Shown here in pieces: positions 4,551-63,828 of a stretch of 64,000 bases of DNA. The notes under the pieces were generated by a model that had not been told where the DNA came from, made no database searches, and saw only the letters and a program-made list of their open reading frames with translations. Numbering within the stretch: position 1 is the first letter of the stretch; each line of letters begins with the position of its first letter. The stretch comes from a virus (lineage: Duplodnaviria; Caudoviricetes): the IMG/VR virus record IMGVR_UViG_3300048881_000780. The stretch is one strand, 5' to 3'. Both the position numbers and the translations under genes were made by a program.

Positions 4551-5509
4551 CCTACTCGCTCCTTAAGATTATCTAACAACTCGATCAGTATCTTAAACCT
4601 CTCAACCATCCCTGAATAGATTATAGAATCCATCTCATCTAGACCCTCGTCATCATCGTATTTAACGAAACTTCTATCTTTTACCCCATCTACACCAAGA
4701 GAAGATTGAGATAGTTTGATCTTAGATATCTGTTCACTCATTTTCATTAATTGAGGATTAAAACTAATGGAATCGACCTCAAATTTTTCTTCGGCCATTC
4801 CTTCATAGACAAAATTATCAAGTTTACTAAAACTACCCCTATAATCAATTTTTTCACTCTTAATTAAATTTTCTCTACTTTTAAAAGTGATACTCACCTT
4901 CTCATCCTTCATATCTGGAGAGTCTGATAATAGAAAAAATAATGAATTTAAGATATCTGCTCTTTGATAAGTTTTATTTTCTTCATCAAAGAAGCAATAT
5001 GTTAAACAAGATAATTCAATATCAATACCAAGATATTGCTTTAAATAGAGCATGAAAGAATAATTATAGTCCTTTCGAATAATACTTGAAGCAAAGAGAT
5101 TATCCTTAGTTGAAATAAAGAAAGTAACTTCCTTTTCTTTAATTGGAGAAGTTAATAGACACTCTTTTCTTGCTTGGGCCTCAATAGTGTACCTATCATC
5201 ACGATACTCTCTTTTTCTCCACCATTTATTTGGAAAACCATTTTTTAAGATGGCCTGTTGATATAGATCCTTTTTTCTCTTTTTTACATCAGATTCTTTA
5301 ACAACCACTTCTTTACAAATAAAAGTTAAATAACAAATATCTAAATCATCTAGATACCTTGATTTCTTTTCCTTAAATACCCAAGATCTTCCATATTCTC
5401 TAACATTTAAAGGTTTTGAATCTATTAGAGAATAAAATAGAAAAGATAAGTCAACCTGGTTGTCTATATTGAATATTTGCGCACTATACGTTTGCGTCAA
5501 CATAGACAT
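4547..5509 (-). CDS. Hypothetical protein, weak resemblance to RdgC
   Basis: 320-aa ORF in operon with SNF2; the segment KEVVVKESDVKK...ARKECLL resembles the RdgC N-terminal pattern (by eye only). Confidence 0.5.
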   Translation of the reverse strand: MSMLTQTYSAQIFNIDNQVDLSFLFYSLIDSKPLNVREYGRSWVFKEKKSRYLDDLDICYLTFICKEVVVKESDVKKRKKDLYQQAILKNGFPNKWWRKREYRDDRYTIEAQARKECLLTSPIKEKEVTFFISTKDNLFASSIIRKDYNYSFMLYLKQYLGIDIELSCLTYCFFDEENKTYQRADILNSLFFLLSDSPDMKDEKVSITFKSRENLIKSEKIDYRGSFSKLDNFVYEGMAEEKFEVDSISFNPQLMKMSEQISKIKLSQSSLGVDGVKDRSFVKYDDDEGLDEMDSIIYSGMVERFKILIELLDNLKERVG

Positions 5510-5735
5510 CAGTTAACTCCTGTAAGGTAGTAATAACTTCGTTAAAAACCTTTTCATCATTAAATGAAAGACTGTAGTTTTGGGAACATTGTCCAAAGAA
5601 CTTAAAATCTTCTTTGAATTTAAGGTCAAATTTATTCTCAATAAGTTCAATTAGATCTTTTGAGCTTAAACCTGTATTCTTCTCTTTAAAGAATATAGAA
5701 AAATCCTTGAACGTCAGTCCAATTGTAAACTTCAT
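5484..5735 (-). CDS. Hypothetical protein
   Basis: AGGAG SD, first gene of operon. Confidence 0.65.
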   Translation of the reverse strand: MKFTIGLTFKDFSIFFKEKNTGLSSKDLIELIENKFDLKFKEDFKFFGQCSQNYSLSFNDEKVFNEVITTLQELTDVYVDANV

Positions 5736-5762
5736 AAAAACTCCTAATGGTGTGTTATGCGA

Positions 5763-5966
5763 TTAAGGAACCATTAAATAGATAACGCCACTTGTGTATT
5801 TTAAGGCGCCATTAACTCCATCCTTAGATTCACTTTCTTGAATATCTAATTCCCTTTGCTTGTCTTTGATAAATGAATTGACATCACTACTCTCGACCTT
5901 ACCTTTAGAAGATCCGGCGCAAGAAGCGAAAACAAATAAAGTGAACAATAATACAAATATTTTCAT
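5763..5966 (-). CDS. Small lipoprotein
   Basis: Likely start MKIFVLLFTLFVFASC (lipobox) at 5966. Confidence 0.7.
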   Translation of the reverse strand: MKIFVLLFTLFVFASCAGSSKGKVESSDVNSFIKDKQRELDIQESESKDGVNGALKYTSGVIYLMVP

Positions 5967-24705: not shown

Positions 24706-24831
24706 AATTTACCTCATTATTATTATATTTTTTTTGAGGTAATGATTTTGTTAGCTAAGTAGCTTAAATATGGTGAATTATTTTTCTAGATATTTGAAAG
24801 AAACCACTCGAGGTTAGACTATAATATAATT

Positions 24832-24904
24832 ACAGAGAGACAATAACGTCTCCTCCTGTCTTGTTGTTTTACTAAATCCCTCTTATTTTAAGAGGGATTT
24901 TTTT
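24832..24904 (+). ncRNA. Candidate sRNA with anti-SD motif GUCUCCUCCU
   Basis: CCACT-N11-TATAAT promoter 24804-24825; 5' hairpin; terminator 24874-24904 with + strand U-tract; no ORF; flanking genes both on minus strand. Confidence 0.6.
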
Positions 24905-24907
24905 GGA

Positions 24908-26525: not shown

Positions 26526-27122
26526 CTAAGCTCTTAATTCGTTAAATATACTAGTTAGGACTTTATAACTTAAGTTAACGTCATATTCTTCCATCAGAAG
26601 GCCAGGCTCATATCTTACGACTCCTACAACGGCCTTAACAATGCGATCTTCCGCATCTTGAGTAAGCGTAACTCCAGCTAGCTCAAAAATATCAGAAAAG
26701 TACTCTCTTCTAAAAGTTGTCTCGTAATCATGTAGGTTAATATTTTCAGAGATGATTCGCTCCCTTCCCACTACTCGAGAAAGAACTTCAATACTTAGCT
26801 CATCAACACTTCTATCTCTATTCTTAGATGGAACGACTACTCTACCCTTTACTGGCATTACTCTTTTTGAACTATTGGCCACAGGAAGCTTAACTCCGTC
26901 CTCTGGCTTAACTCTTGGGTCAATTGTCCCCATAGCAGACGCTTTTCTTAATTTGTTGAATTTTTCACTCTTATCTACTGAAAGACATTTAGTCTTACCT
27001 GTTAGTAGCTTATGAATTCCCGTATGGTGAAAACCTAGGTGTCTAGCAACCATAGCTCCTGAAACATCATACTCATTCATAAATGCTTTAATTTCTTCTT
27101 TTGTTGTTCTTGGTGTTTCCAT
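26526..27122 (-). CDS. HTH (XRE-like) DNA-binding protein; candidate master repressor
   Basis: VSGAMVARHLGFHHTGIHKLLTGK helix-turn-helix; operator in its own promoter. Confidence 0.7.
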   Translation of the reverse strand: METPRTTKEEIKAFMNEYDVSGAMVARHLGFHHTGIHKLLTGKTKCLSVDKSEKFNKLRKASAMGTIDPRVKPEDGVKLPVANSSKRVMPVKGRVVVPSKNRDRSVDELSIEVLSRVVGRERIISENINLHDYETTFRREYFSDIFELAGVTLTQDAEDRIVKAVVGVVRYEPGLLMEEYDVNLSYKVLTSIFNELRA

Positions 27123-27168
27123 TGTTTTCTCCGTTAAGTGTGTGTTATATTTAATGTGTATTTAAATA

Positions 27169-27185
27169 ATAACACCTTGCGTTAA
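27169..27185. promoter_or_regulatory. Palindromic operator copy (ATAACACCTTGCGTTAA)
   Basis: Upstream of HTH gene. Confidence 0.7.
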
Positions 27186-29939: not shown

Positions 29940-30374
29940 TTACCAATCTACTGGGCCATTACCACCTTCATCTTGAGCTGGCATATCAGAAGAATAATCT
30001 GGTGCCTGCTCTGGTGCTTGAGAATTAGACTTTTCACCATTAGCACTTGCCCCACTAAGAAATTGGATATTTCTAGCGTTTATTTCAGTGGTATATCTCT
30101 TACTTCCATCTTGACCTTCCCAAGATCTAGTTTGCAAAGACCCCTCGACAAAGGCCTGTTTTCCTTTACTTAAATATTGATTACAAAGCTCTGCAAGCTT
30201 TCCCCAAACAACCACTCTGTGCCATTCCGTCTTTTCTTGCTTTTGACCACTTTTATCGGCCCAAGATTCACTCGTAGCTAGGGAGAAATTACAAACCGCC
30301 GCACCAGATGGTGTGTACTTAAGTTCAGGGTCAGTTCCCAGTCTTCCTAGAATCATTACTTTATTTACAGACAT
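29940..30374 (-). CDS. ssb: Single-stranded DNA-binding protein (copy 1, tail GPVDW)
   Basis: [18 protein letters not shown]...[14 protein letters not shown]...EGSLQTRSW. Confidence 0.95.
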
Positions 30375-33683: not shown

Positions 33684-34118
33684 TCAAAATGGAATATCAT
33701 CACTTGTGAAATTTGAATCTGTTGCAATTTCATAATCCTGTGAGAACTCTTCATTAGAAGGACCACTTTGTTTTGAATTATTGCTTTTACTTGCTCCACC
33801 TAGAAATTGAATATTTCTGGCATTGATTTCAGTAGTATATCTCTTCGTTCCATCTTGTCCTTCCCAAGATCTAGTCTGTAGAGATCCCTCAATAAAGGCC
33901 TGACGTCCTTTAACTAAGTACTGATTACAGAGTTCTGCCAGTTTTCCCCAAACAACAATTCTGTGCCATTCGGTCTTTTCTTGCTTTTGACCACTCTTAT
34001 CATTCCACGATTCACTCGTTGCCACAGAGAAATTACAAACAGCCACTCCACTTGGCGTATACTTAAGTTCTGGATCAGTGCCAAGTCTTCCTAATATCAC
34101 TACTTTGTTTACAGACAT
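33684..34118 (-). CDS. ssb: Single-stranded DNA-binding protein (copy 2, tail DDIPF)
   Basis: OB fold nearly identical to copy 1; canonical acidic tail. Confidence 0.95.
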
Positions 34119-34192: not shown

Positions 34193-34245
34193 CTTTACAA
34201 AGTATGTGCACCTGTAATATCATTAATTCAACAAAGGAAAAGCAA

Positions 34246-34875
34246 ATGGATTCAATACTAATTGAAATAAAGACATATCTGGTATCACTCCTTGGCACCA
34301 ATAGTTCAGTGTTTTGTGTATTATTAGTATGCGTAACATTATTCTGCTTGGGTTATTTAAAAATAGTCGAAAAAAAATCAGAATATATAGCACTTCCCTT
34401 TTCCATTGTGATAACCTTTTGTGTTATTTTGGCTCATTTTTTCTATTCATCATCTGTTCCCTTAAAAAAGGGTATTTGCCTTACTATAAAAACAAACACT
34501 CTACCTAACTACAAACGCCTAATTAGCAAGCTGGCACTACTGAACGATGAGATTGACGAACATAAGTCGCTTAAGTCAAGTTGGATAAAAGCTTTAAACT
34601 TGAACCATAAAAGAGTTTCTCAACTTAAAGAAAGAGAGAGAATAATTAGAGAGTTAGAGTCTATGAAGTCTAAGCCGTATACATTCGTAGTCTTAGATAA
34701 CTTTAAATCCAAAGGTCTCTACTATATTACTCATAAAAATATGTACACCACTGAGATACCCGAGCTTGGTAATTACTTTATACAAAAGTGCAAAAAAAGT
34801 GATCAAGAAATAATAAAGAAATATTCTAATAACAAAGAAGAAACTTTAGCTAGAGTCAAATTTGTATCTAATTAG
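34246..34875 (+). CDS. Membrane-anchored coiled-coil protein, tandem paralog 1
   Basis: 2 TM, KGIC, VLDNFK..LYY, KC..SD..I...YS.NKE. Confidence 0.75.
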   Translation: MDSILIEIKTYLVSLLGTNSSVFCVLLVCVTLFCLGYLKIVEKKSEYIALPFSIVITFCVILAHFFYSSSVPLKKGICLTIKTNTLPNYKRLISKLALLNDEIDEHKSLKSSWIKALNLNHKRVSQLKERERIIRELESMKSKPYTFVVLDNFKSKGLYYITHKNMYTTEIPELGNYFIQKCKKSDQEIIKKYSNNKEETLARVKFVSN

Positions 34876-34894
34876 AAGCTAAGGAGAAATAATT

Positions 34895-35518
34895 ATGAAT
34901 TCTATGGCTGGAACACATGTAACTTCCTCAATAATAGGTCTACTATCATTAGGAATCCCCTCTCTTATTATGATAACGTTTTATCATATTTCAAACTTAG
35001 ATGATAAGTCACCTTTATCATTAATATCTAACCCCCTCATAATTTTTAATATAGCTTACTTGTCTATTCTTGTTTTAATAGTAAATATTACTAAGCTTCC
35101 ACCAAAGATTGGAACTTGTATCACGACTAGACCGCACTACGAATTTCCCGAATATAAAAAAACAAAAAAACAGCTTAAAGAAATTGATGAAAAACTAGAA
35201 AAGTTTAAGTCATTTCGATCAAGCTGGAGTGAACTACCAAGTATCAAACTAAGAAAAGATGAATTACTTAAAGAAAAGAAAGACGTAGAAGGAAAATTAA
35301 AAGCTTTAATGGATAAAAAAGTTAAACTCATTGTTTTAGATAATTTCAAAGGTCACACTTTATATTACTCTTCATCTACAGATACATATACAACAGAAGT
35401 AACAAAACAAAAGAACTACTTTACCGAAAGATGTAGCAATAGTGATCAAGAAATTTTAAAGAACTATTCTAGCAATAAAGAAGAAATTTTAAATAATATT
35501 AAATTTGTTTCAAAATAA
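34895..35518 (+). CDS. Membrane-anchored coiled-coil protein, tandem paralog 2
   Basis: Same motifs; AAGGAG SD. Confidence 0.75.
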   Translation: MNSMAGTHVTSSIIGLLSLGIPSLIMITFYHISNLDDKSPLSLISNPLIIFNIAYLSILVLIVNITKLPPKIGTCITTRPHYEFPEYKKTKKQLKEIDEKLEKFKSFRSSWSELPSIKLRKDELLKEKKDVEGKLKALMDKKVKLIVLDNFKGHTLYYSSSTDTYTTEVTKQKNYFTERCSNSDQEILKNYSSNKEEILNNIKFVSK

Positions 35519-35531
35519 AAAAGGAGAGATT

Positions 35532-36158
35532 ATGGAATTCTTATATTCAATATTAACGTCAATGAAAATGTTTACAATTCAAGTGCTTGGAACTAATAAT
35601 TCCGACCCAATAATGTACATGATCGCCTTAATGTTAATTCCAGCATTGGCATCGTTTCTACACGGACTAGATAAAGAGAATGAAACCGCTGGTCTCTTCT
35701 TAATCGCTTTTATTGTAATGGGATCATTTAACTACCTTAGATTTTCAACATCTATTCATTTAAAAAAGGGTACTTGTTTAATTACAAAATCTCAAAAGCA
35801 TTCTAATAGATTAAATAGTTTATACGTTCTAGAAAACAACTTAAAGAAGTACCCAGGTCTTAAATCCGACTGGAGTGGAGTCCTACAAAAAGAAAAACGC
35901 TTACTCGTAAACAAAATAAAGAATTTAAAATCGGAGATTAAAACTCTAGAAAAAAGAGAGTCTAAATATATTGTCTTGGATAACTTTAAAGATAAGGGAC
36001 TCTACTACATGAGAAATAAAGAGAGTTATACAATCAATAGACCTACTGATGAAGTATATTTTAAAACTAAATGCAATACAAGTGATCACAGTATTATTGA
36101 GATGTACTCCAAGAATAAAGAGAGTATTTTAAATAACTTAAAAGTTGTATCTAACTAG
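35532..36158 (+). CDS. Membrane-anchored coiled-coil protein, tandem paralog 3
   Basis: Same motifs; AAGGAG SD. Confidence 0.75.
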   Translation: MEFLYSILTSMKMFTIQVLGTNNSDPIMYMIALMLIPALASFLHGLDKENETAGLFLIAFIVMGSFNYLRFSTSIHLKKGTCLITKSQKHSNRLNSLYVLENNLKKYPGLKSDWSGVLQKEKRLLVNKIKNLKSEIKTLEKRESKYIVLDNFKDKGLYYMRNKESYTINRPTDEVYFKTKCNTSDHSIIEMYSKNKESILNNLKVVSN

Positions 36159-43931: not shown

Positions 43932-44040
43932 TTTTAACTCCTATTTATTAACCTAATACACTTATCGTAATATCATTAGGCAATATTAATACTTGACAAG
44001 ACTAACGCAACACGTTAACATATATAAAAAAGGAGTTTCT

Positions 44041-44223
44041 ATGGACTACTATCTAATGATCTATATGGTTTTCTTTATTATTACCTTTTCTCTTTGTTGG
44101 AAATATCTAGAAAGTAAATCTCATAAAAACTCAAAAAAGGACAATCTTAACAAAATTGAAGATTTAAAAATTGAATTTGACCTAATGTTAAATGGTAAAT
44201 TATCAAGGAAGTTCTTTGAATAA
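44041..44223 (+). CDS. Small membrane protein
   Basis: AGGAG SD; single TM; TTGACA promoter with operator 44002-44018. Confidence 0.6.
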   Translation: MDYYLMIYMVFFIITFSLCWKYLESKSHKNSKKDNLNKIEDLKIEFDLMLNGKLSRKFFE

Positions 44224-44527
44224 GTTAGATCGATTAAAAAGACAAATTTCCAACCGTCTTAAACTAAATACTACTATTAATACAAGAGATACTAAGAAGA
44301 AGTATAATCATGCTTTCTCTATAGCTTTTTCTGTCAATACAGACAATGAAGGAAAAAGTGTTACAGAGGAAGAACTTCTCTGTGCGCTAGTCGGTAGAAT
44401 TAAGGATATCTCCGAGGGAAAGGACTGTGAAATGATTGAGGCATGTGGCCTTCCTCATGATACTTACTTAAATGATGAAAATGAGTCCTCCAAGTCGGAG
44501 AACCCTTGGTTAGCATCTCTTAAGTAA
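44192..44527 (+). CDS. Hypothetical protein
   Basis: 111-aa ORF. Confidence 0.55.
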   Translation: MVNYQGSSLNKLDRLKRQISNRLKLNTTINTRDTKKKYNHAFSIAFSVNTDNEGKSVTEEELLCALVGRIKDISEGKDCEMIEACGLPHDTYLNDENESSKSENPWLASLK

Positions 44528-47716: not shown

Positions 47717-47733
47717 ATAACACCTCGTGTTAT
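47717..47733. promoter_or_regulatory. Palindromic operator copy (ATAACACCTCGTGTTAT)
   Basis: Perfect-arm palindrome overlapping TATAAT. Confidence 0.75.
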
Positions 47734-47766: not shown

Positions 47767-48000
47767 ATGAAAACATTTTTAGGATTTTGCGGAGCAACCT
47801 TTTTGGTTTCTTTTGGTTTTGTATTATATACGTCGTTTACAATCGTACAAACCTCAGATTTAGAGAATGGGGTTATAAAAATTGATGATTATAAGAGCTA
47901 TGAGTGTAAACTCACTGCAAGTAGTGAAAGAAAGATAAAATTAAAAGAGGATCTTGATAGATTAATAAAAAAAGATAAACTTAAAAAAAGTAGGCTTTAA
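47767..48000 (+). CDS. Small membrane-anchored protein
   Basis: AGGAG SD; N-terminal TM. Confidence 0.6.
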   Translation: MKTFLGFCGATFLVSFGFVLYTSFTIVQTSDLENGVIKIDDYKSYECKLTASSERKIKLKEDLDRLIKKDKLKKSRL

Positions 48001-48251
48001 GAGGCACTACTTATTAAGTTATTAGTTTTATTGATGATTCTTAGTTCTCCATCCTTACTCTCAGTAAAAATAGTCCCATCTCTTTTCGCGAAAACGAGTA
48101 CCGTTTCATCTTCTTTATTTCTTTTTAAATGAAAGGCAGGCCATTTTTCTAGAGGCATATCTACTTCAAAAATATTTGAGACATGGTAGATGCTATAGTC
48201 TCTAATACATGTTTCTCTAAATTCCGTAATGTAATCAAGTCTTGATTTCAT
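47997..48251 (-). CDS. Hypothetical protein
   Basis: AAGGA SD; operator at 48276-48292. Confidence 0.65.
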   Translation of the reverse strand: MKSRLDYITEFRETCIRDYSIYHVSNIFEVDMPLEKWPAFHLKRNKEDETVLVFAKRDGTIFTESKDGELRIINKTNNLISSAS

Positions 48252-48378
48252 AATTCCTTCCTTGTGTAATTATTTTTAACAGTCCGTGTTAAATTAAATG
48301 ATACTAAAACACTCGGGCATAGCGTGAGGGGTTTCTTTATTTAAGTTTGATTTTACAACTTTTTCAGATACTTGAGAG

Positions 48379-48954
48379 TTATCTCTTCATTGCAAACTTA
48401 GGATGTTTCTTTAGAAATTTAGATTTTTTATAACTAAGAGAGAAGTGTTTTCTTAAAATTCTTCTTTTTGAGAGAAATCTATTTGGATAAAATATGGCCT
48501 TACTGATCACTTGATTCTTTTTCTTGAGCCTTCTATAGGCGGTTGGCCCCTGGTTGTACATCATTAAAGATTCAAGTAGATCGTTTGTGTAATTTTTTTG
48601 TAAGTACTTTAAGTAATAGGTTCCCAAAATGATATTTAGTCTTGGTTTTTTCCAAGGGCACATTTTCTTTCCAAGATTCTTTTCACATAATTCCACAGCT
48701 GTTCTTGGCATAATTTGAGTTAAACCATAGGCCCCAACATTAGATTTAGCATTCTTCTTAAAACCTGACTCAATCCAAATTAAGCTCGCTATATCATATG
48801 GATCTAATTTAAACTTGATGGCCGCTTCAAAGATATACTTTTCATATAAGAATAGGCCTTCAACAACACTGGAAGGTAATTCTTTCTGTAGTTCGTTATT
48901 GGCAAAAGAACTTTTCAAATTAATCAATAATAGTAATGCTATAAGTATTTTCAT
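48379..48954 (-). CDS. Lytic transglycosylase (SLT, VirB1-like)
   Basis: Signal peptide; IESGF, GAYGLTQIMPRTA, YNQG. Confidence 0.9.
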   Translation of the reverse strand: MKILIALLLLINLKSSFANNELQKELPSSVVEGLFLYEKYIFEAAIKFKLDPYDIASLIWIESGFKKNAKSNVGAYGLTQIMPRTAVELCEKNLGKKMCPWKKPRLNIILGTYYLKYLQKNYTNDLLESLMMYNQGPTAYRRLKKKNQVISKAIFYPNRFLSKRRILRKHFSLSYKKSKFLKKHPKFAMKR

Positions 48955-48970
48955 GGTTATATTTTAATAA

Positions 48971-49189
48971 TTAAAAAGTGGTTTCAATATTTCCAAAATT
49001 AATTTTAAAGTGCCTAATTATATCTTCTCTAGTTAATTTAGACTCTGCTCTTCTTTTCTTGTTTTTTCGTCTTGCTCTATTTTTAAATTTCTCTTTATTT
49101 TCTTTTCTACAGAGAGACTCTTTTTCGTTAAATTCTTTTCTCTGCTTTTTACTTTTAAACTTTTTACAATGATTCAAAGTAACCTCCAT
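48971..49189 (-). CDS. Small highly basic hypothetical protein
   Basis: K/R-rich ORF behind TTGACA promoter with operator 49210-49226; exact start uncertain. Confidence 0.45.
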   Translation of the reverse strand: MEVTLNHCKKFKSKKQRKEFNEKESLCRKENKEKFKNRARRKNKKRRAESKLTREDIIRHFKINFGNIETTF

Positions 49190-49357
49190 TGATAATATTA
49201 TAAATAAATATAACATCTAGTGTCAAGACGTAACAAACAGAACCACGTAATTCCAGAAGCTTATCCACTTTTAAACTTTTTTCTATTTTATATTTTGACA
49301 AAGTACGACAATATTTATAACCTAAAACTAACACACTGCAACACACAGTAGGAATTT

Positions 49358-50086
49358 ATGAAATTAATAGTTTTAATAACGCTTCTTGGAACAATTGTTT
49401 CATGTGGGCAACAAGTAAAGGTAAATAAAAGATTTAGTCTTCCAAAGACCGACGAAGTGTTTTCGACATATCTAGAAACCTATTCGGATAATTACGCTCA
49501 GACCTATGGTCAAGCTCCAAGCTTACATAATATCCATATCGTATTTGCAGAGTTCTCAAAAGAGGACTCTCAGTATGCAGGAATCTGTTACACCATCGAA
49601 AATCAGGTTGCCCGGCTCATTGAGATAAACCCAGAACATTGGGCAAAGTACTCAGAGGCCAAGAGGGAAAGTTTAATCTTTCACGAACTAGGACATTGTC
49701 ACCTTAATTTAAAGCATGTGAATGAACATAGAACATACTTTGATCAAACTGATGACTCTCGAGTTAGTAATATCATGTACCCATACATCAACTCTAACTG
49801 GGGCATTAGTCACGAAGTCGTTGATGAAGAAAAGAGAGATTTGGCCCTGGAGATGCTATTTGATCTCGACTTAAATCCAGAAGATAGCGTCTTTATTAGC
49901 TATTTTGAATATTACAATCTTCCTGTTCCGGTAAGCAATATCGGCGTTATGAATGCATTAATGATTAATGAGGAAGATGACTGCGAAAGAGATATTGAGA
50001 ACTCATTAAATAGTTATGAGATCGAAGAAGATACATATACACACGAACATGAAACAGAAGGAGACTCTCATGGAATCGAAAGTTAA
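49358..50086 (+). CDS. Lipoprotein zinc metallopeptidase (metzincin-like)
   Basis: VSCG lipobox; HELGHCHLNLKH and Met-turn (NIMYP). Confidence 0.8.
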   Translation: MKLIVLITLLGTIVSCGQQVKVNKRFSLPKTDEVFSTYLETYSDNYAQTYGQAPSLHNIHIVFAEFSKEDSQYAGICYTIENQVARLIEINPEHWAKYSEAKRESLIFHELGHCHLNLKHVNEHRTYFDQTDDSRVSNIMYPYINSNWGISHEVVDEEKRDLALEMLFDLDLNPEDSVFISYFEYYNLPVPVSNIGVMNALMINEEDDCERDIENSLNSYEIEEDTYTHEHETEGDSHGIES

Positions 50087-50390
50087 TAACGAAGATACAA
50101 TTATGGATTCAACTAATAAAGTCCCGGCGATGACTTCAACTAAAGAAGTTCCAACCTTGAATATTCTAAAATATGATAGTAATCGTAAACTCTACAATAG
50201 AGATCAAGCTGTCTACACGAATATCGAAAAAATTGCCAAAGCACTTATGGATAATCCTCATGTGAATCTTAAAATTGAAGATCAAGATAAGAAAGATATT
50301 TCAAAAGATGTTGTATACGCATGTTTGAAATATAAACTAGCAGATGAAAGTCTTACTACAGAAATGTTACTAGAGCTTTTTAAGGCATAA
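50070..50390 (+). CDS. PhaR-like (PHB_acc_N) DNA-binding domain protein
   Basis: ILKY..NRKLY....Y..IE.I...D...DI pattern; AGGAG SD. Confidence 0.65.
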   Translation: MESKVNNEDTIMDSTNKVPAMTSTKEVPTLNILKYDSNRKLYNRDQAVYTNIEKIAKALMDNPHVNLKIEDQDKKDISKDVVYACLKYKLADESLTTEMLLELFKA

Positions 50391-50391
50391 T

Positions 50392-50420
50392 AAAAAAAGG
50401 ACTCTTACGAGTCCTTTTTT
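50392..50420. terminator. Bidirectional terminator
   Basis: A7-GGACTC-ttac-GAGTCC-T6. Confidence 0.85.
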
Positions 50421-50481
50421 ACACACACATACACACACACATAAGGAGTAGGAGATTTGATCTAGAGATGATCGTTCCTAC
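50392..50481 (-). ncRNA. Candidate sRNA with anti-SD plus (GU)n seed
   Basis: TTGACG-17-TATTAT promoter (50516-50488) containing an operator; 5' GUAGGA/UCCUAC hairpin; CUCCUUAUGUGUGUGUGUAUGUGUGUGU; terminator with U7. Confidence 0.68.
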
Positions 50482-50565
50482 AAATTCATAATATCGGCCA
50501 TAACGCAGGCCGTCAAGATATTTATTAATAAAAATTAAAAAATATTAAACCTTATAATATTTGAA

Positions 50566-50883
50566 ATGAGAATTTATATGAAATTATTTACTTCAATATT
50601 ATTAGTAATGTTATCTATCTCCTCTTATGGAGATGATCATGTTGACATGAACTCTAAAATATTAAAGGCCTTGACTAAAACTAAGTCAGTGAAAAGAATA
50701 AAGAAACCTTTAAAAAGAAAGTTCAAAAGTATCCCAGTAGTAGGACAGGCGTACCCTACTCTTGGTCTTGCCATGATTGGAGTTACTAAGAAAGTTAAAG
50801 GAAAATTTGTTATCTTAGGTAATGATCTACGATATGAAGTAGGTCTTAAGAAAGTAAAAATCGAATATAAAATACAATTTTAA
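50566..50883 (+). CDS. Secreted hypothetical protein
   Basis: Signal peptide. Confidence 0.65.
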   Translation: MRIYMKLFTSILLVMLSISSYGDDHVDMNSKILKALTKTKSVKRIKKPLKRKFKSIPVVGQAYPTLGLAMIGVTKKVKGKFVILGNDLRYEVGLKKVKIEYKIQF

Positions 50884-51374
50884 GATGAAACTGGTATTTT
50901 TAGATTGTGAATGTTGAGTTCATCAAAGTTAAATAATTCAAAAGTTTTCTGAGCACATTTTAAGGCCTCATTATTTAATTTCAAGGAAATTAAGTTAGAG
51001 AATTGAGCACGGTATGGAGATAACAAGAAGTCAATCTCACCTTCAAGAGAGAGTTCGTCTCCCTTATTTAAAGATACCATTCCTTCTTTTTCTCGGTCTT
51101 TATATATGCAATAGAATCCGTCCTTTTGAGACGCTGTTTCGTGACTATAGTATGAGACTGTATACATAGTTATTTTATTAACAGCACAAAAAAGTTTTAA
51201 ATATGTTTCGGCCATAATGAATCGATCTGGACAATCTATTGATAAAACTTTGAAGACCTCATTTCCCTCTTCATCAATCGCTAAGAATAGCAACTTATCT
51301 TCGAGATCTAATTCGTGGGCCTCTCCAATTCTTAGAGAAATATTTCTATGAATTTCTTTTTTTACTGATTCCAC
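50880..51374 (-). CDS. Hypothetical protein
   Basis: 164-aa ORF, GAGG SD. Confidence 0.65.
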   Translation of the reverse strand: MESVKKEIHRNISLRIGEAHELDLEDKLLFLAIDEEGNEVFKVLSIDCPDRFIMAETYLKLFCAVNKITMYTVSYYSHETASQKDGFYCIYKDREKEGMVSLNKGDELSLEGEIDFLLSPYRAQFSNLISLKLNNEALKCAQKTFELFNFDELNIHNLKIPVSS

Positions 51375-51497
51375 AATGCCTCATTTTTTAATTCTACTTA
51401 GATACTCTAACATGGCGCCCCATCCTATTCAATTTATTTTTTAACGCTTTGTGAAATATTATTGAAGCATATGTTAAAATCAACAATAGAGGTACTT

Positions 51498-52124
51498 ATG
51501 AAGTTAGTTTTCCTATCTGACACACATTCAAAACACCGAGCTGTGGAAAATATTTCCGGAGATATCGTTATTCACTGTGGGGACTTTACAAGAAGAGGGA
51601 AAAACTCTGAAATTATTGAGTTTTTAGACTGGTTCTCATCTCTTGATTTTAAGTATCACATTCTGGTTGCAGGAAATCATGACTTTGGATTAGAGGATTC
51701 AGGGGTATTTGATTACAGTAAAATACTCAAAGATAAAGGTGTTATATACTTAGAAGATTCCGGTGTTAACATAAATGGTCTAAATTTTTGGGGATCTCCC
51801 TATCAACCAGAGTTTAATAATTGGGCATTTAACTTAAAGAGAGGAGAGGAGCTTAAAAAACATTGGGATATGATTCCAGATGATACCGATATTCTAATTA
51901 CACATGGACCGCCACATAAGATTTTAGATCTATGTCCAAGTGGAAATGTAGGTTGTGAGGAATTACTTAAGAGAGTTAGTAGTTTAAATTTAAAAATTCA
52001 TGCTTTTGGACATATTCACGAAGGGTATGGATCTAGAGATATTGATGGAACTTACTTTATTAATTGTTCCATTTTAGATGAATATTACCGAATTAAAAAT
52101 AAACCTGTTGTTATCGAATTGTAG
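51498..52124 (+). CDS. Calcineurin-like metallophosphoesterase (MPPED type)
   Basis: SDTH, HCGD, GNHD, THGPP, FGHIHE. Confidence 0.9.
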   Translation: MKLVFLSDTHSKHRAVENISGDIVIHCGDFTRRGKNSEIIEFLDWFSSLDFKYHILVAGNHDFGLEDSGVFDYSKILKDKGVIYLEDSGVNINGLNFWGSPYQPEFNNWAFNLKRGEELKKHWDMIPDDTDILITHGPPHKILDLCPSGNVGCEELLKRVSSLNLKIHAFGHIHEGYGSRDIDGTYFINCSILDEYYRIKNKPVVIEL

Positions 52125-52132
52125 TGTTAGGT

Positions 52133-53851
52133 CTAAGCACTTTTTGAGTATGATCTGACTTCCTTAGAAAATGACTTTTTAAGTTTTTCAGTTAAATTAT
52201 TTTCTCTGGCAAATCTGTAAAATTTAGCGTTATTACCTTTAGTGAATTCAGACCAACTGGAACACTTTAAAAGGGCCTCTAGTGTAGTTTCTTCGTTAAC
52301 GACTATATTCATATGTTCGCAAACAATATCAAGCCAATTCATTCTTTGAGCACGTTTGTAATAACTTGAGTGGATACTATTCTTAAACTCTCCTCTCTTT
52401 TTATATAACTTTGCTTTCTCTATACAATCTTCGATAGTTCTTCCCTTTTTATTCGATAGAGATACGATATTTGCCATTTTAAAAACTCTCTCAAGTTCAC
52501 CTCTATCTTGAGCTATTTTATAGAATTTCTTTCCGGTTGGACAATCACGCATGTCGATTCTCTTTTTATATCTTTTAGCGACTTCAACTATTTGATCTAT
52601 TGAGATGAATTCTTTCTCGCTATAGTAGGCACTTTTAATCTCACTTAGAGACGTCATTACGTACTCACCATTCTTACTTTCATTTATTCTTTTAAATACA
52701 TCAAGATCAAATTCAAGAGGAATGGAATTTTTACTCTTATAGCAATTAAGACCTCTGATAATATTCTTATTCATTGCTACTTTAAATTGAGAACTACCTT
52801 CGTAGCTTAAGTAGTATTCTTTTATTATTAATGAGCACGCCACTGACATGGCCGCGTAATAGATTGATAATCTTGAGTCGTCGCAAACTTTTATAAACTT
52901 CTTACCAGTTAATCCCAACCTGGTAACTCTATTAATTGCCTGGTATAGAAAATCTACATTCATACTTCCTGAAAAATCTATGATATATCGAAGTGAATTT
53001 AGATCGTAACCAAGAACTCCCCTTCTAACTACGAGTAAAACTTTTTCTTTGCTTGATTTAAAGTTGGATAGATTTTCTGATTTCTTGTCCGTTTTATAAT
53101 TTGTAATTAATGAAGAGATACCCATTTTACTTAATGCTTTTTGACACTGTCTCTGATGAGCAACATCATTACATATGATCATTGTTTTAGATCTAAAACA
53201 ATTTTGATGTTCTTTGAGTACCTTTCTAATAAACTTGTCTTCAAAAATAGTATCCTGTCTTACAAAGTCATTTCGGGTATAATCACTATCTTTTAAGTCC
53301 CAATTAAATTTTGATATTGTAATCTTGGGATTACAGATTACTTTATTAGCAAGTAATTCTTCGGTTGAAATACTCACTATTGGGTATTCAGTGTTTCTAA
53401 TAAAACCACTTATAGATCCAGTCATAGGTAGTACGTACTTTGGTTTTATATCTTTTAATATTGTTTGAACCATATTTTCAAAAAAGAAGTGATGGGCCTC
53501 ATCGATAACAATTAAATCAAACTTAAACTTCTTGAGCTTTCTATAGGACTGAGGAAGTGAAATGCAAATATCATCACTATTTTTGTATTCATCAATGTAT
53601 TTAACACTTAGCTTTTTATTTAAACCTAGTTTAGTGAATCTAGAGTAAAATTGCTCTTTTAAAATATTTTGTCCATGGGTAAGAACTAGAATTTTTTTAA
53701 TTAACTTCTTTTGTTTCATCTTCTTTATTAGAGAGATAGATATATTTGTCTTACCAGAAGCAGGCGCCGCTCCAAGGACTACAAACTTGTTGTTCTTAAA
53801 AAGGTTTATGCATTCGTTTACTTTTTTATCTTGATAACTGTAGTCGGGAAT
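52133..53851 (-). CDS. SF2 (DEAH) helicase with three C-terminal repeats; probable ATT start
   Basis: Frame extends 44 codons upstream of the tracked ATG and includes Walker A (AAPASGKT); IDEAH, MTGS, QAINRVTR. Confidence 0.8.
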   Translation of the reverse strand: MPDYSYQDKKVNECINLFKNNKFVVLGAAPASGKTNISISLIKKMKQKKLIKKILVLTHGQNILKEQFYSRFTKLGLNKKLSVKYIDEYKNSDDICISLPQSYRKLKKFKFDLIVIDEAHHFFFENMVQTILKDIKPKYVLPMTGSISGFIRNTEYPIVSISTEELLANKVICNPKITISKFNWDLKDSDYTRNDFVRQDTIFEDKFIRKVLKEHQNCFRSKTMIICNDVAHQRQCQKALSKMGISSLITNYKTDKKSENLSNFKSSKEKVLLVVRRGVLGYDLNSLRYIIDFSGSMNVDFLYQAINRVTRLGLTGKKFIKVCDDSRLSIYYAAMSVACSLIIKEYYLSYEGSSQFKVAMNKNIIRGLNCYKSKNSIPLEFDLDVFKRINESKNGEYVMTSLSEIKSAYYSEKEFISIDQIVEVAKRYKKRIDMRDCPTGKKFYKIAQDRGELERVFKMANIVSLSNKKGRTIEDCIEKAKLYKKRGEFKNSIHSSYYKRAQRMNWLDIVCEHMNIVVNEETTLEALLKCSSWSEFTKGNNAKFYRFARENNLTEKLKKSFSKEVRSYSKSA

Positions 53852-61036: not shown

Positions 61037-61663
61037 TTAGGCCACTGCTTTATTCCCAGTACAACTACTACATATTCCATCAGTCATAGAACTCTCCAAT
61101 CCCTTAGTATTGCACTCGTCACACTCTGAAACCCTTCTCTCTCCAATTATTTTCAAACAATCTCCACTGAAATCAAAGCAAACATAGATATTACCTAGTG
61201 TTTTATGAAAACTGTGATGAACTGGATATCTCTTTACCAGCGAGTGTAGCACAGATACGATCTCAGTATTTTCAGTAATAGTGTACAATCCTTCATCATT
61301 ATCTAATACTTTTGAGATACTATAAGAGAATTCAGATAGCGCTGAGTCTCCATCTAAAACTTTTTGACATGCATCAATAATTTTTTCACCCTTTTCTAGT
61401 TCATGACTAATTTCGCACATCTCTCTGGCGCTTGAAATTAGCCCCTGGAGTACTTCTAACTTAGTTCCATCTAAGATATCACTATCATCGATTTGAACCT
61501 CGTAAACGCTCTTTGTTGCATACTCATAAGCAAGTAGCCAGTTAGAAGTTAGATAGATCCCCTCACCTTCAACTCTTTTGAGTGTTTCCACTCTTTCGCA
61601 ATATTCTGCCTTGTAAACCAACTTTTTTAATCCAGATTTACTGGATCCATGAAAAACTTCCAT
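61037..61663 (-). CDS. Protein with ADP-ribosyltransferase-like N-terminus and C-terminal CxxC pair
   Basis: VFHGS...GEGIYLT....AYEYA; start after GGAGG. Confidence 0.55.
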   Translation of the reverse strand: MEVFHGSSKSGLKKLVYKAEYCERVETLKRVEGEGIYLTSNWLLAYEYATKSVYEVQIDDSDILDGTKLEVLQGLISSAREMCEISHELEKGEKIIDACQKVLDGDSALSEFSYSISKVLDNDEGLYTITENTEIVSVLHSLVKRYPVHHSFHKTLGNIYVCFDFSGDCLKIIGERRVSECDECNTKGLESSMTDGICSSCTGNKAVA

Positions 61664-61778
61664 AATTACCTCCAAAATACATATCGTAAATATCCAATAA
61701 AAGGGGAAAATATGAAAAAATGAGCACTTAGTTAAAATATTTATTGACATGACACGTTAACTAATATATTATTTAATT

Positions 61779-62070
61779 AACAAAGGGTTCAACTCTAACC
61801 GCCAAGATGGCCAGCTTAGGAATCCAACTGTTAATATTCCAAATAGCTTCTAAGTATTAGAGGTAATGTTCAGGAAGAACGACTAGGAAGGAATAATTAA
61901 GAGGGAAAGTTTGTGATTAAATTAGACTTCTTTTAGAACTTTAATTTGTCAAAAACAAATCATTACATTAAGTGATGTCTCGCGTTTGAAAATTTGCTAA
62001 TGTCTCAACATCTCCTCGCTTCGTTTGAGCATATGACAATTGAATAACTAAAGATTTTCCTCTTGTTTTT
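61779..62070 (+). ncRNA. Candidate ~290-nt structured ncRNA
   Basis: TTGACA-17-TATTAT promoter (61744-61772) with operator; no ORF; long-range pairing of 61899-61912 with 62051-62064. Confidence 0.45.
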
Positions 62071-63828
62071 TTATCTAAATACCATCTTACATTCTGTTAT
62101 TTTTATTTCAGCTGAAGTGTAGGCCCCTTCTGCGGCCCATCCACCTGTGTGAATGTAGAAGTAAATCCCCCAGTTCTTCGAGTCTAGTTGCCTTATAATC
62201 GAGTGAGTTGGCCAACTTCTTCCAACTGGATGTTGAGGAATGACTGATCCTCCCATAATGCATTTTTGCTGATGAACATGGGCCGTCTCCGTCATATTTG
62301 AGTAAATCCAGTTATGTGTCCACACCTGATCTAATATCGTGATATTCTCTGCCGAATCAAACTTGTAATTGTATATTCTTCCAGCATGAGGTTGACACTC
62401 ATCACCACTACAGGTTGGTTGAGCAACGTAACCTGAGTAGGTAACTCTTTTTTGATTTTCTTTTATGTAAAATATTAAAGAATTTCCGTCTCTACCCATT
62501 TCATCAACAGCTGTAACTTTAATCTCTATTTTTTCAGAGGGATATCTTCTGCGACAAAATCTAGATGTTGAAGTTGAGTACTCTCCCGTTATTTGACCAT
62601 CGTTATCAATAATAGGTAGTCCTAAGCAATTATCTAATGGTGTCGCTAGTTTAAATTCGGAATTTCCATCTTCAAAATGTTTGACGTGATCAATTCTAAC
62701 AGTAGCACCTGGAGTGAGAGTAAATTCCGGTAAATAGAAGTACTGACCACTTGGTGATTCGAATGCGGCGCCTTCACTATCTAGAGAATACAATTTATTC
62801 ACTGTTGTACTGGCATTGTGAGAGAGCTTTATTTCCGCGGGAGTGACTCCCGAATTAAACCATTCATTACATACATTGGAGTGACCCTTTTCTAGAAGAT
62901 CATCTTCAGAAACTCTAATTACCTGATCAAAGTATGACCCAGAGTCTCTTAGTACTAATTCTCCTATTGAAAGCTCTTCATCTGAATAAAAGTCTGTACA
63001 TAGATTTTCATCACAAGTGAAATTACTTGGTCCTTTTGAGTGTACAAACTCCAGACCTGTGGTAGAAAAATTTTCAAAGCTATATCCAGTATATGTTGGA
63101 GACAATGACGCTCCCTCCATAGATGTTTTTTCATATATACCTGAACAACACTGTCTAGATCTGTGAAAGAATCTACAATTAATTTCTTTAGTCCTCTTTA
63201 TGCACATCCTTTGCCTAAGCTCTCCTCCACACTTTCTTCTTGAAGGATTTCTGGTAACATTGAACGTTGTATCATCTGTCTCAACGTACCCGAAGGGACA
63301 GCTAAATTTATTCGCTTCTAACCATAGAGAATCATCATCATTACAGACATCTCTACCAGTTGAGTTAAAATAGTTTCTAGCATCCTCTCCGTAAACGCCA
63401 CTTGAAAAATTTTGAGCGCAAATATCGGAACTATTCTTTCCAGGTACTCTTTGTAATCCCGACATCTTAATATCGACATTCTTGAGTATATTTGAAATCA
63501 GAGTAAAGCTGGATGCATCCTCATTTACTTTTGTCGGTGAGAAATCAACAGAAATATTTATATCATTATCAGCTGAGTAGAGCTTTGTTCTAAGGTTTGT
63601 TTTATAAGATTCTGGTAGCATCTTAAAGAAAATATTCTTATCTTCTCCCTCCATATTACCTGATATCGTGGCCGTAAAATTGCTACCATTATTTGAAATA
63701 TTTGGAGTATAGTCGTAAGGATAGTAACAAAATACTCCTTCGCAATTCACTTCAATTTCAATAGGAGGACTCTCCTCTTGGGCGAAAATATTCAACTGTA
63801 ATAATATTAATAAGATAACAATTCTCAT
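62071..63828 (-). CDS. Secreted cysteine-rich protein
   Basis: Signal peptide; many Cys (FSCPFGY, RQCCSG). Confidence 0.75.
   Translation of the reverse strand: MRIVILLILLQLNIFAQEESPPIEIEVNCEGVFCYYPYDYTPNISNNGSNFTATISGNMEGEDKNIFFKMLPESYKTNLRTKLYSADNDINISVDFSPTKVNEDASSFTLISNILKNVDIKMSGLQRVPGKNSSDICAQNFSSGVYGEDARNYFNSTGRDVCNDDDSLWLEANKFSCPFGYVETDDTTFNVTRNPSRRKCGGELRQRMCIKRTKEINCRFFHRSRQCCSGIYEKTSMEGASLSPTYTGYSFENFSTTGLEFVHSKGPSNFTCDENLCTDFYSDEELSIGELVLRDSGSYFDQVIRVSEDDLLEKGHSNVCNEWFNSGVTPAEIKLSHNASTTVNKLYSLDSEGAAFESPSGQYFYLPEFTLTPGATVRIDHVKHFEDGNSEFKLATPLDNCLGLPIIDNDGQITGEYSTSTSRFCRRRYPSEKIEIKVTAVDEMGRDGNSLIFYIKENQKRVTYSGYVAQPTCSGDECQPHAGRIYNYKFDSAENITILDQVWTHNWIYSNMTETAHVHQQKCIMGGSVIPQHPVGRSWPTHSIIRQLDSKNWGIYFYIHTGGWAAEGAYTSAEIKITECKMVFR

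Follow-up and report, generated by a model that had tools for sequence, protein, structure and literature searches.

The candidate unit lies on the minus strand at 50516-50392 of the window, by which we mean the whole analysed stretch of 64,000 nucleotides (GC content 32%), itself part of a 361,129-bp JGI contig. It runs over 125 bp from promoter to terminator without a reading frame, and occupies most of a 187-nt gap between two plus-strand genes (50070-50390 and 50578-50883; Table 1). No ORF of 30 aa or longer was found on either strand of 50391-50565, no tRNA or tmRNA was found at the unit, and neither the 106-aa nor the 101-aa neighbouring protein gave a significant family match. A coding gene was ruled out because there is no ORF, a MITE because terminal inverted repeats are absent, and a plus-strand leader with a real ORF because the only frames in that orientation have 2 and 7 codons. 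As would be asked of a generic trans-acting sRNA, the unit is intergenic and non-coding, and has its own promoter and intrinsic terminator.

Table 1. Features of the candidate sRNA unit, its neighbouring genes and the leaders predicted to pair with its seed (window coordinates).
Feature	Position	Strand	Remarks
-35 hexamer TTGACG	50511-50516	-	Read directly and found by promoter scan; also the outer half-site of the palindrome; identical in copy B
-10 hexamer TATTAT	50488-50493	-	17 nt past the -35; identical in copy B
Palindrome-family site (17 bp) ATAACGCAGGCCGTCAA	50500-50516	.	Pattern WTRAC-N7-GTYAW; spans -35 and spacer of the minus-strand promoter
Predicted 5' end and 5' hairpin GUAGGA..GAUC..GAUC..UCCUAC	50448-50481	-	From fold; G at about 50481
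Exposed seed CUCCUUAU + (GU)4 AU (GU)5	50421-50448	-	Anti-Shine-Dalgarno, then GU repeat; unpaired in MFE and centroid structures
Intrinsic terminator A6-GGACUC-GUAA-GAGUCC-U7	50392-50420	-	Symmetric; also ends the plus-strand gene stopping at 50390
Convergent neighbour, 106-aa protein	50070-50390	+	Weak PHB_acc_N-like DNA-binding match; terminator in common with the unit
Divergent neighbour, 101-aa protein	50578-50883	+	Signal-peptide-like N-terminus; likely -10 TATAAT at 50553-50558
Leader AACACACUGCAACACACAGUAGGAA of metallopeptidase-like gene 49358-50086	49318-49357	+	Predicted target, -28.8 kcal/mol
Leader ACACACACUUAACGGAG of 198-aa HTH-like gene 26526-27122	27129-27145	-	15 bp with seed, -28.6 kcal/mol
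Leader of 60-aa gene 44041-44223	44001-44040	+	Predicted target, -27.7 kcal/mol
Leader AUAACACACCAUUAGGAG of gene 5484-5735	5736-5775	-	Predicted target, -24.4 kcal/mol

A reading made from the sequence alone had placed here a minus-strand promoter, TTGACG-17-TATTAT, and a transcript of about 90 nt with a 5' hairpin, an unpaired segment and a U7 terminator. Each of these elements is present: the promoter scored 10/12 in the promoter scan, and the predicted 90-nt RNA (50481-50392) folds at -25 kcal/mol (z = -4.7, with 0 of 200 shuffles as good), a score that is in part uninformative on minus-strand transcription, since the symmetric terminator also serves the gene ending at 50390. The putative start at a G was placed from the position of the -10 hexamer; when it is shifted by +3 or -2 nt, the 5' hairpin persists and the fold remains stable. 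The unpaired segment CUCCUUAUGUGUGUGUGUAUGUGUGUGU (50448-50421, 28 nt) has a mean unpaired probability of 0.71. It includes the 21-nt AC tract at 50421-50441, reported as a repeat by the tandem-repeat finder and unique in the window, while GTGTGTGT occurs four times in the window (0.5 expected) with sites only at the candidate sRNA locus and in the 27138 leader. The terminator was missed by our pattern scan, we would guess because its stem extends into the A/T runs.

The symmetry of this terminator, which begins 2 nt past the stop codon at 50390, would also suit an explanation by coincidence, in which the terminator of the 50070-50390 gene, a regulatory site of the 50578 gene, a neutral (AC)n microsatellite and a chance minus-strand promoter lie side by side and any transcript is functionless. 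Sigma70-like matches overall are not enriched in the AT-rich window (81 found against 83.5 expected), and promoter-like matches stand at chance level, with 42 of at least 10/12 in 128 kb. On the other hand, in this intergenic DNA a given hexamer has by chance a -10 with 5/6 matches at 16-18 nt in only 3.6% of cases, and the arrangement of the promoter recurs at genes elsewhere in the window, as described below.

The -35 of the putative sRNA promoter is simply the half-site of a palindrome. The window has 20 matches to the pattern WTRAC-N7-GTYAW where 1.5 would be expected, and nearly all of these copies are intergenic and adjoin gene starts. The site at 50500, which the sequence-only reading had taken for an operator embedded in the promoter, is a real member of this family: scored with a matrix built from the other 23 sites, it reaches 16.5 bits, a score that falls among those of the training sites and far exceeds background, and it ranks 20th among 63,983 positions. 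It may be a repressor site; an activator site would be equally possible, and a promoter element is another option.

Members of the family are found in two layouts. In the first, the -10 stands directly beside the distal half-site or overlaps with it, as in GTGTTATAAT at 47717. In the second, the -35 consists of a TTGAC[AG] half-site, and a good -10 comes at 17-18 nt. The second layout is found at 49210(-), 58417(-), 61744(+) and the candidate sRNA promoter; these are 4 of the 10 orientations of TTGAC type, where 0.36 would be expected. At 49210(-) and 58417(-) it precedes real genes by 33 nt. The layout of the sRNA promoter is therefore one that the element uses elsewhere, and the fact that the identical layout drives real genes argues against coincidence. 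The first layout could be claimed for the opposite strand, where the half-site GTCAA is directly followed by GATATT, a -10 abutting the palindrome as at other sites, which would be consistent with a regulatory site for the 50578 gene. The likely -10 of that gene nevertheless lies about 45 nt beyond the palindrome, whose centre precedes the likely start by about 57 nt; since the palindrome covers the minus-strand -35 and spacer, it appears placed for controlling the RNA and not the 50578 gene.

Other observations concern the same promoters. Within the promoter spacer, copy A (50495-50512) has CGGCC...GGCCG, and copy B, the second copy of the unit described below (L004:11313-11330), has CGACC...GACCG. 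The two G-to-A changes between the copies run in parallel and do not complement each other, as would be seen in a direct repeat with a spacing of about 12 nt. They may be fortuitous, or may mark a further protein-binding feature, for example a site for a response regulator. At 61744-62070 (+), a second orphan promoter (TTGACA-17-TATTAT, 11/12), again with a palindrome half-site as its -35, points into about 310 nt without an ORF longer than 23 aa, convergent with the 3' end of the gene 62071-63828. Another non-coding RNA may be transcribed from it; alternatively, the minus-strand gene starting at 61663 may be the only one that the palindrome serves.

The unit is present at least twice on the 361-kb element. 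A Logan assembly of SRR35531919 carries, in contig SRR35531919_968 (L004), a stretch identical to the window, and the first 49 nt of copy B lie 26 kb away at L004:11309-11357, or 76844-76892 (+) in window coordinates. Copy A reads TTGACG-GCCTGCGTTATGGCCGA-TATTAT-GAATTTG-TAGGAACGATCAT and copy B TTGACG-ACCTGCGTTAAGACCGA-TATTAT-AAACTTG-TAGGAACGACCAA, continuing after TATTAT as TAGGAACGA; the two are 89% identical over 45 nt (BLAST, E = 7e-9). Over the 49 nt compared, copy B keeps both hexamers, the 17-nt spacing and the start of the hairpin, and its palindrome scores 16.46 bits, equal to that of copy A. The similarity starts exactly at the -35, with unrelated DNA upstream; this puts the edge of the repeated unit at the promoter, where it should be for a duplicated gene. 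The contig terminates inside copy B, 49 nt in, which would fit an assembly break at the repeat. Retention of -35, -10, spacing and hairpin start next to unrelated upstream DNA is not what a chance promoter would predict; neither is a 21-nt AC tract that is unique in the window and whose complement matches leaders far above shuffled expectation (see below). We therefore consider coincidence fairly unlikely.

Repetition of the unit, with an assembly that breaks within it, would also be consistent with a dispersed DNA repeat (a REP- or MITE-like element, or else a module for recombination or binding) or with a duplicated relic of a (CA)n-Shine-Dalgarno leader lying on the opposite strand, possibly with a start-stop mini-ORF. 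The plus strand does read (AC)n-AUAAGGAGUAGGAG, identical 18-mers elsewhere are real leaders in that orientation, and a TTG stands 8 nt past AAGGAG, giving the frame TTG ATC TAG at 50457; a 7-codon ATG frame follows at 50468. A relic leader (AC)n-AUAAGGAG on the plus strand would moreover give the same complementarity to other leaders as a minus-strand seed. However, the lack of terminal inverted repeats speaks against a repeat of this kind, as does the extent of the unit, from TTGACG to the U-run. Against a relic, the plus-strand frames are confined to those of 2 and 7 codons, and four of the seven codons of the longer one are changed in copy B, always at position one or two of the codon, which gives no indication that the peptide is under selection. 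A leader would also not be expected to bear a conserved promoter pointing in the opposite direction at its far end. This explanation appears very unlikely to us.

The 18-mer CTCCTTATGTGTGTGTGT gave three chance matches in genome contigs, and two of the three lie antisense to a real leader of the form (CA)n-AUAAGGAG-ATG. In the unrelated genomes concerned (L009:128-145 and L010:7553-7570), it is the reverse complement of (CA)n-ATAAGGAG(G/A)-N7-9-ATG before real ORFs. Since the 18-mer falls in leaders of unrelated genomes, leaders with a CA repeat and a Shine-Dalgarno sequence exist in distant bacteria.

To identify potential targets, the seed was scanned against both strands of the 64-kb window in 55-nt windows. 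The four best non-self pairing sites on the two strands are all ribosome-binding regions. Because an anti-Shine-Dalgarno sequence favours such regions trivially, each region was shuffled with its dinucleotide content kept: five ribosome-binding regions pair at -24 kcal/mol or lower against 0.19 expected, the maximum in 100 shuffled sets being two, and for each of the five (50070, 49358, 27122, 44041 and 5735) none of 100 shuffles of its own was as good. The ribosome-binding region of 50070 is the best predicted target (-30.2 kcal/mol), although this value and those in Table 1 are inflated as absolute duplex energies, since GU repeats pair promiscuously. The leader of the HTH-like gene ranks third among 83 ribosome-binding regions, and the region of 5735 is likewise one of the best sites. 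A pairing of about 15 bp with this leader, proposed in the sequence-only reading, was recovered by hand alignment at 27129-27145 (-), where the seed and ACACACACUUAACGGAG form 4 bp, a C bulge, 3 bp, a U.U mismatch and 8 bp. These results support a complementarity of the seed to CA-rich leaders with a Shine-Dalgarno sequence that goes beyond chance.

Leaders of this type, which had been described at 5735, 47767 and 49358, have the stated composition, and the one at 53851 precedes an ATT codon that is the apparent true start of the helicase. The helicase ORF is called from the ATG at 53719 (-), with the Walker A motif GAAPASGKT upstream of that ATG; ATT at 53851 is the only codon available past the preceding stop, with AAGGAA 5 nt before it in the leader CUACACAAC, and a non-canonical ATT start is therefore probable. 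Across the window, the words ACACA and CACAC occur at 6.4 per kb in sense-strand leaders and at 0.94 per kb genome-wide (about 7-fold), and their GT complements at 2.2 per kb in leaders (2.4-fold enriched); 9 of the 15 other runs of (CA)3 or longer stand in sense orientation no more than about 45 nt from a start codon. The positions of these runs and the enrichment of the words imply that a CA run plus Shine-Dalgarno sequence is a real leader type of this element, and the seed is antisense to it. In the best cases, the CA run lies 1-5 nt from the Shine-Dalgarno sequence. The CA-rich leaders also resemble single palindrome half-sites (WTAACACA) and are positioned about where transcription should start, so they may have a role at the DNA level.

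From this sequence evidence, the unit at 50516-50392 (-) is probably a member of a new sibling family of trans-acting sRNAs of about 90 nt. The RNA would be transcribed from a sigma70-type promoter in which one 17-bp palindromic site occupies the -35 and spacer, and this site would place it under common regulation with most transcription units of the element. Between its 5' hairpin and terminator, the RNA would expose a single-stranded CUCCUU anti-Shine-Dalgarno sequence followed by a (GU)n tract, and this seed would pair with mRNA leaders in which AGGAG is preceded at 1-5 nt by a CA-rich run, blocking ribosome binding. We propose that a repeat seed offers several pairing registers, so differing distances between CA run and Shine-Dalgarno sequence would be tolerated.

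We regard as unlikely a more far-reaching version in which the uncharacterised 361-kb element would be extrachromosomal, a sibling sRNA family within its palindrome regulon would use a register-flexible seed to silence CA-enhancer leaders in part of that regulon, the mRNA of the regulator among them, and a feedback loop of transcription factor and sRNA would thereby set the element on or off. A still narrower version had been put forward from the sequence alone, with the 198-aa HTH-like protein as the palindrome repressor and the sRNA as a block to its translation, forming a double-negative, bistable switch. This would be consistent with the pairing of its leader, which includes GGAG and is the third best of 83, with the palindrome at 27169 in the spacer of its promoter (TTGGCA-17-TATTAT), as expected for an autoregulated repressor, and with the palindrome that the sRNA promoter likewise has. 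However, the ribosome-binding regions of two other genes pair better with the seed, and about 24 palindrome sites stand against about 83 genes, so that most transcription units have a palindrome and sharing one is unspecific. The part of the earlier reading that treated the locus as a self-contained minus-strand gene with a regulon site and complementarity to leaders has held; the part that made the 198-aa protein the palindrome repressor is not supported, since its sole family match is HTH_31 at E = 0.03, below the cut-off, and other proteins encoded in the vicinity are also DNA-binding candidates (the PHB_acc_N-like neighbour, a response regulator and an HTH_3 protein). The loop would thus depend on two putative links, the binding of the palindrome by this protein and the repressor nature of the site, and we judge the switch quite improbable. 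A post-transcriptional arm of the regulon, which the sequence-only reading had also offered, fits the data better than mutual inhibition.

Another stretch of the window has a comparable anatomy. At 24826-24906 (+), between two minus-strand genes and past a TATAAT, a hairpin is followed by GUCUCCUCCU, a U-rich stretch and a strong U7 terminator (-24.7 kcal/mol, z = -5.0), with CUCCUCC largely paired in the minimum-energy fold. We consider it a candidate for a second anti-Shine-Dalgarno sRNA.

Searches of several collections gave no relatives of the element itself. Proteins of the window include RecJ-, ClpA-, FtsK-, ScpB-, SLT-, helicase- and methylase-like ones besides many orphans, and the closest relative of the ClpA-like protein is about 40% identical. 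The region 48000-53800 had no match by blastn against plasmids and phages, the helicase loci had no relative in the genome and viral contig collections, and the 106-aa protein encoded at 50070-50390 had none either, being a singleton among 5.8 billion proteins. A 20-mer of the RNA had no match in viral contigs and one in metagenome contigs, which is unrelated and has 53% GC. With no relatives in these collections, no cross-organism comparison is available and the case for the sRNA rests on evidence from within the element.

All-against-all BLASTP indicated that paralogs are scarce: two 144-aa proteins, encoded at 33684-34118 (-) and 29940-30374 (-), are 81% identical, three tandem proteins of about 210 aa at 34204-36158 (+) are paralogs with 29-37% identity, and these two families together with two ClpA-like genes are the only paralog families in 77 kb. 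A 163-aa protein at L004:6287-6778 (+), or 71822-72313 in window coordinates, has 4,183 relatives at E <= 0.001, which are often parts of giant fusion proteins and all of which lack the C-terminal tag of the element; one of them, P0127, lies on unrelated contigs, and the protein's own record leads only to Logan contig SRR35531919_968. The protein P0123 (window 44192-44527) has NPWLASLK as its C-terminal end. A two-component pair is encoded at L004:4464-6267.

If the sRNA reading is true, a very large element without known relatives would run a post-transcriptional layer atop one element-wide DNA motif, with a seed that is essentially the idealised antisense of a leader made of CA enhancer and Shine-Dalgarno sequence. 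It would be a clean natural case of CA-rich enhancer silencing outside the GcvB lineage, and of a dinucleotide repeat acting as a spacing-tolerant seed. The design also supplies ready predicted targets in 27122, 49358, 50070, 44041 and 5735. If the RNA is not expressed, the locus would be a mere common terminator beside a regulatory site, of little interest.

The family search against Rfam that the sequence-only reading had suggested gave no match: at gathering thresholds, Rfam 15, which includes GcvB, csRNA and plasmid ctRNAs, had 0 matches in the whole window, and a permissive scan of 50350-50560 reached a maximum of 24 bits against thresholds of 45-124, most matches lying over the terminator hairpin. 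Duplicated promoter-to-terminator units with a common seed and a common transcriptional input are represented by Qrr1-5, LhrC1-5, OmrA/B and PrrF1/2. These differ from the candidate in their seeds, regulators and hosts, the LhrC/RsaE types being C-rich, and none of them is known to have a dinucleotide-repeat seed.

The csRNAs of Streptococcus would be the nearest known counterpart in both architecture and discovery logic. These cia-dependent small RNAs comprise several highly similar siblings of about 50-200 nt, in which two stem-loops flank an unpaired region complementary to the Shine-Dalgarno sequence; in their promoters a transcription-factor site replaces or overlaps the -35, and their genes were first predicted by the combination of site, -10 and terminator (PMC3091779). 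The candidate shares the presence of a second copy, similar over the 49 nt compared, a predicted length of about 90 nt, a regulator-type site at the -35 and a similar prediction logic, and its (C)UCCUU anti-Shine-Dalgarno sequence would likewise be exposed between 5' hairpin and terminator. In contrast to the CiaR direct repeat of the csRNA promoters (NTTAAG-N5-TTTAAG, also given as TTTAAG-N5-TTTAAG, 10 nt before the -10), the candidate promoter TTGACGGCCTGCGTTATGGCCGATATTAT has no TTTAAG repeat and instead a 17-bp palindrome. The unpaired UCCUUAUGUGUGUGUGUAUGUGUGUGU also lacks an anti-start (CAU), the only CAU being in the 5' hairpin loop, and the seed runs on into a GU dinucleotide repeat. 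The host of the candidate is an unrelated element of 32% GC, and the RNA has no Rfam match.

In seed chemistry, the closest known system would be GcvB (RF00022; enterobacteria and Pasteurellaceae). Its G/U-rich seed was reportedly found by Sharma et al. in 2007 to act on C/A-rich enhancers near the Shine-Dalgarno sequence. The candidate, with a G/U-rich seed set against C/A-rich sites near the Shine-Dalgarno sequence, would resemble it in mode and not by membership. A published account describes a G/U-rich single-stranded seed of GcvB that acts on C/A-rich translation enhancers at or just upstream of the Shine-Dalgarno sequence in many mRNAs (PMC3879156). Unlike GcvB, which is about 200 nt long and linked to the divergent gcvA, the candidate RNA is about 90 nt, multi-copy and unlinked to gcvA, has an explicit anti-Shine-Dalgarno hexamer beside the GU tract, and gives no sequence or structure match to GcvB. 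The candidate RNA, a member of neither family, resembles both the streptococcal csRNAs and GcvB in design.
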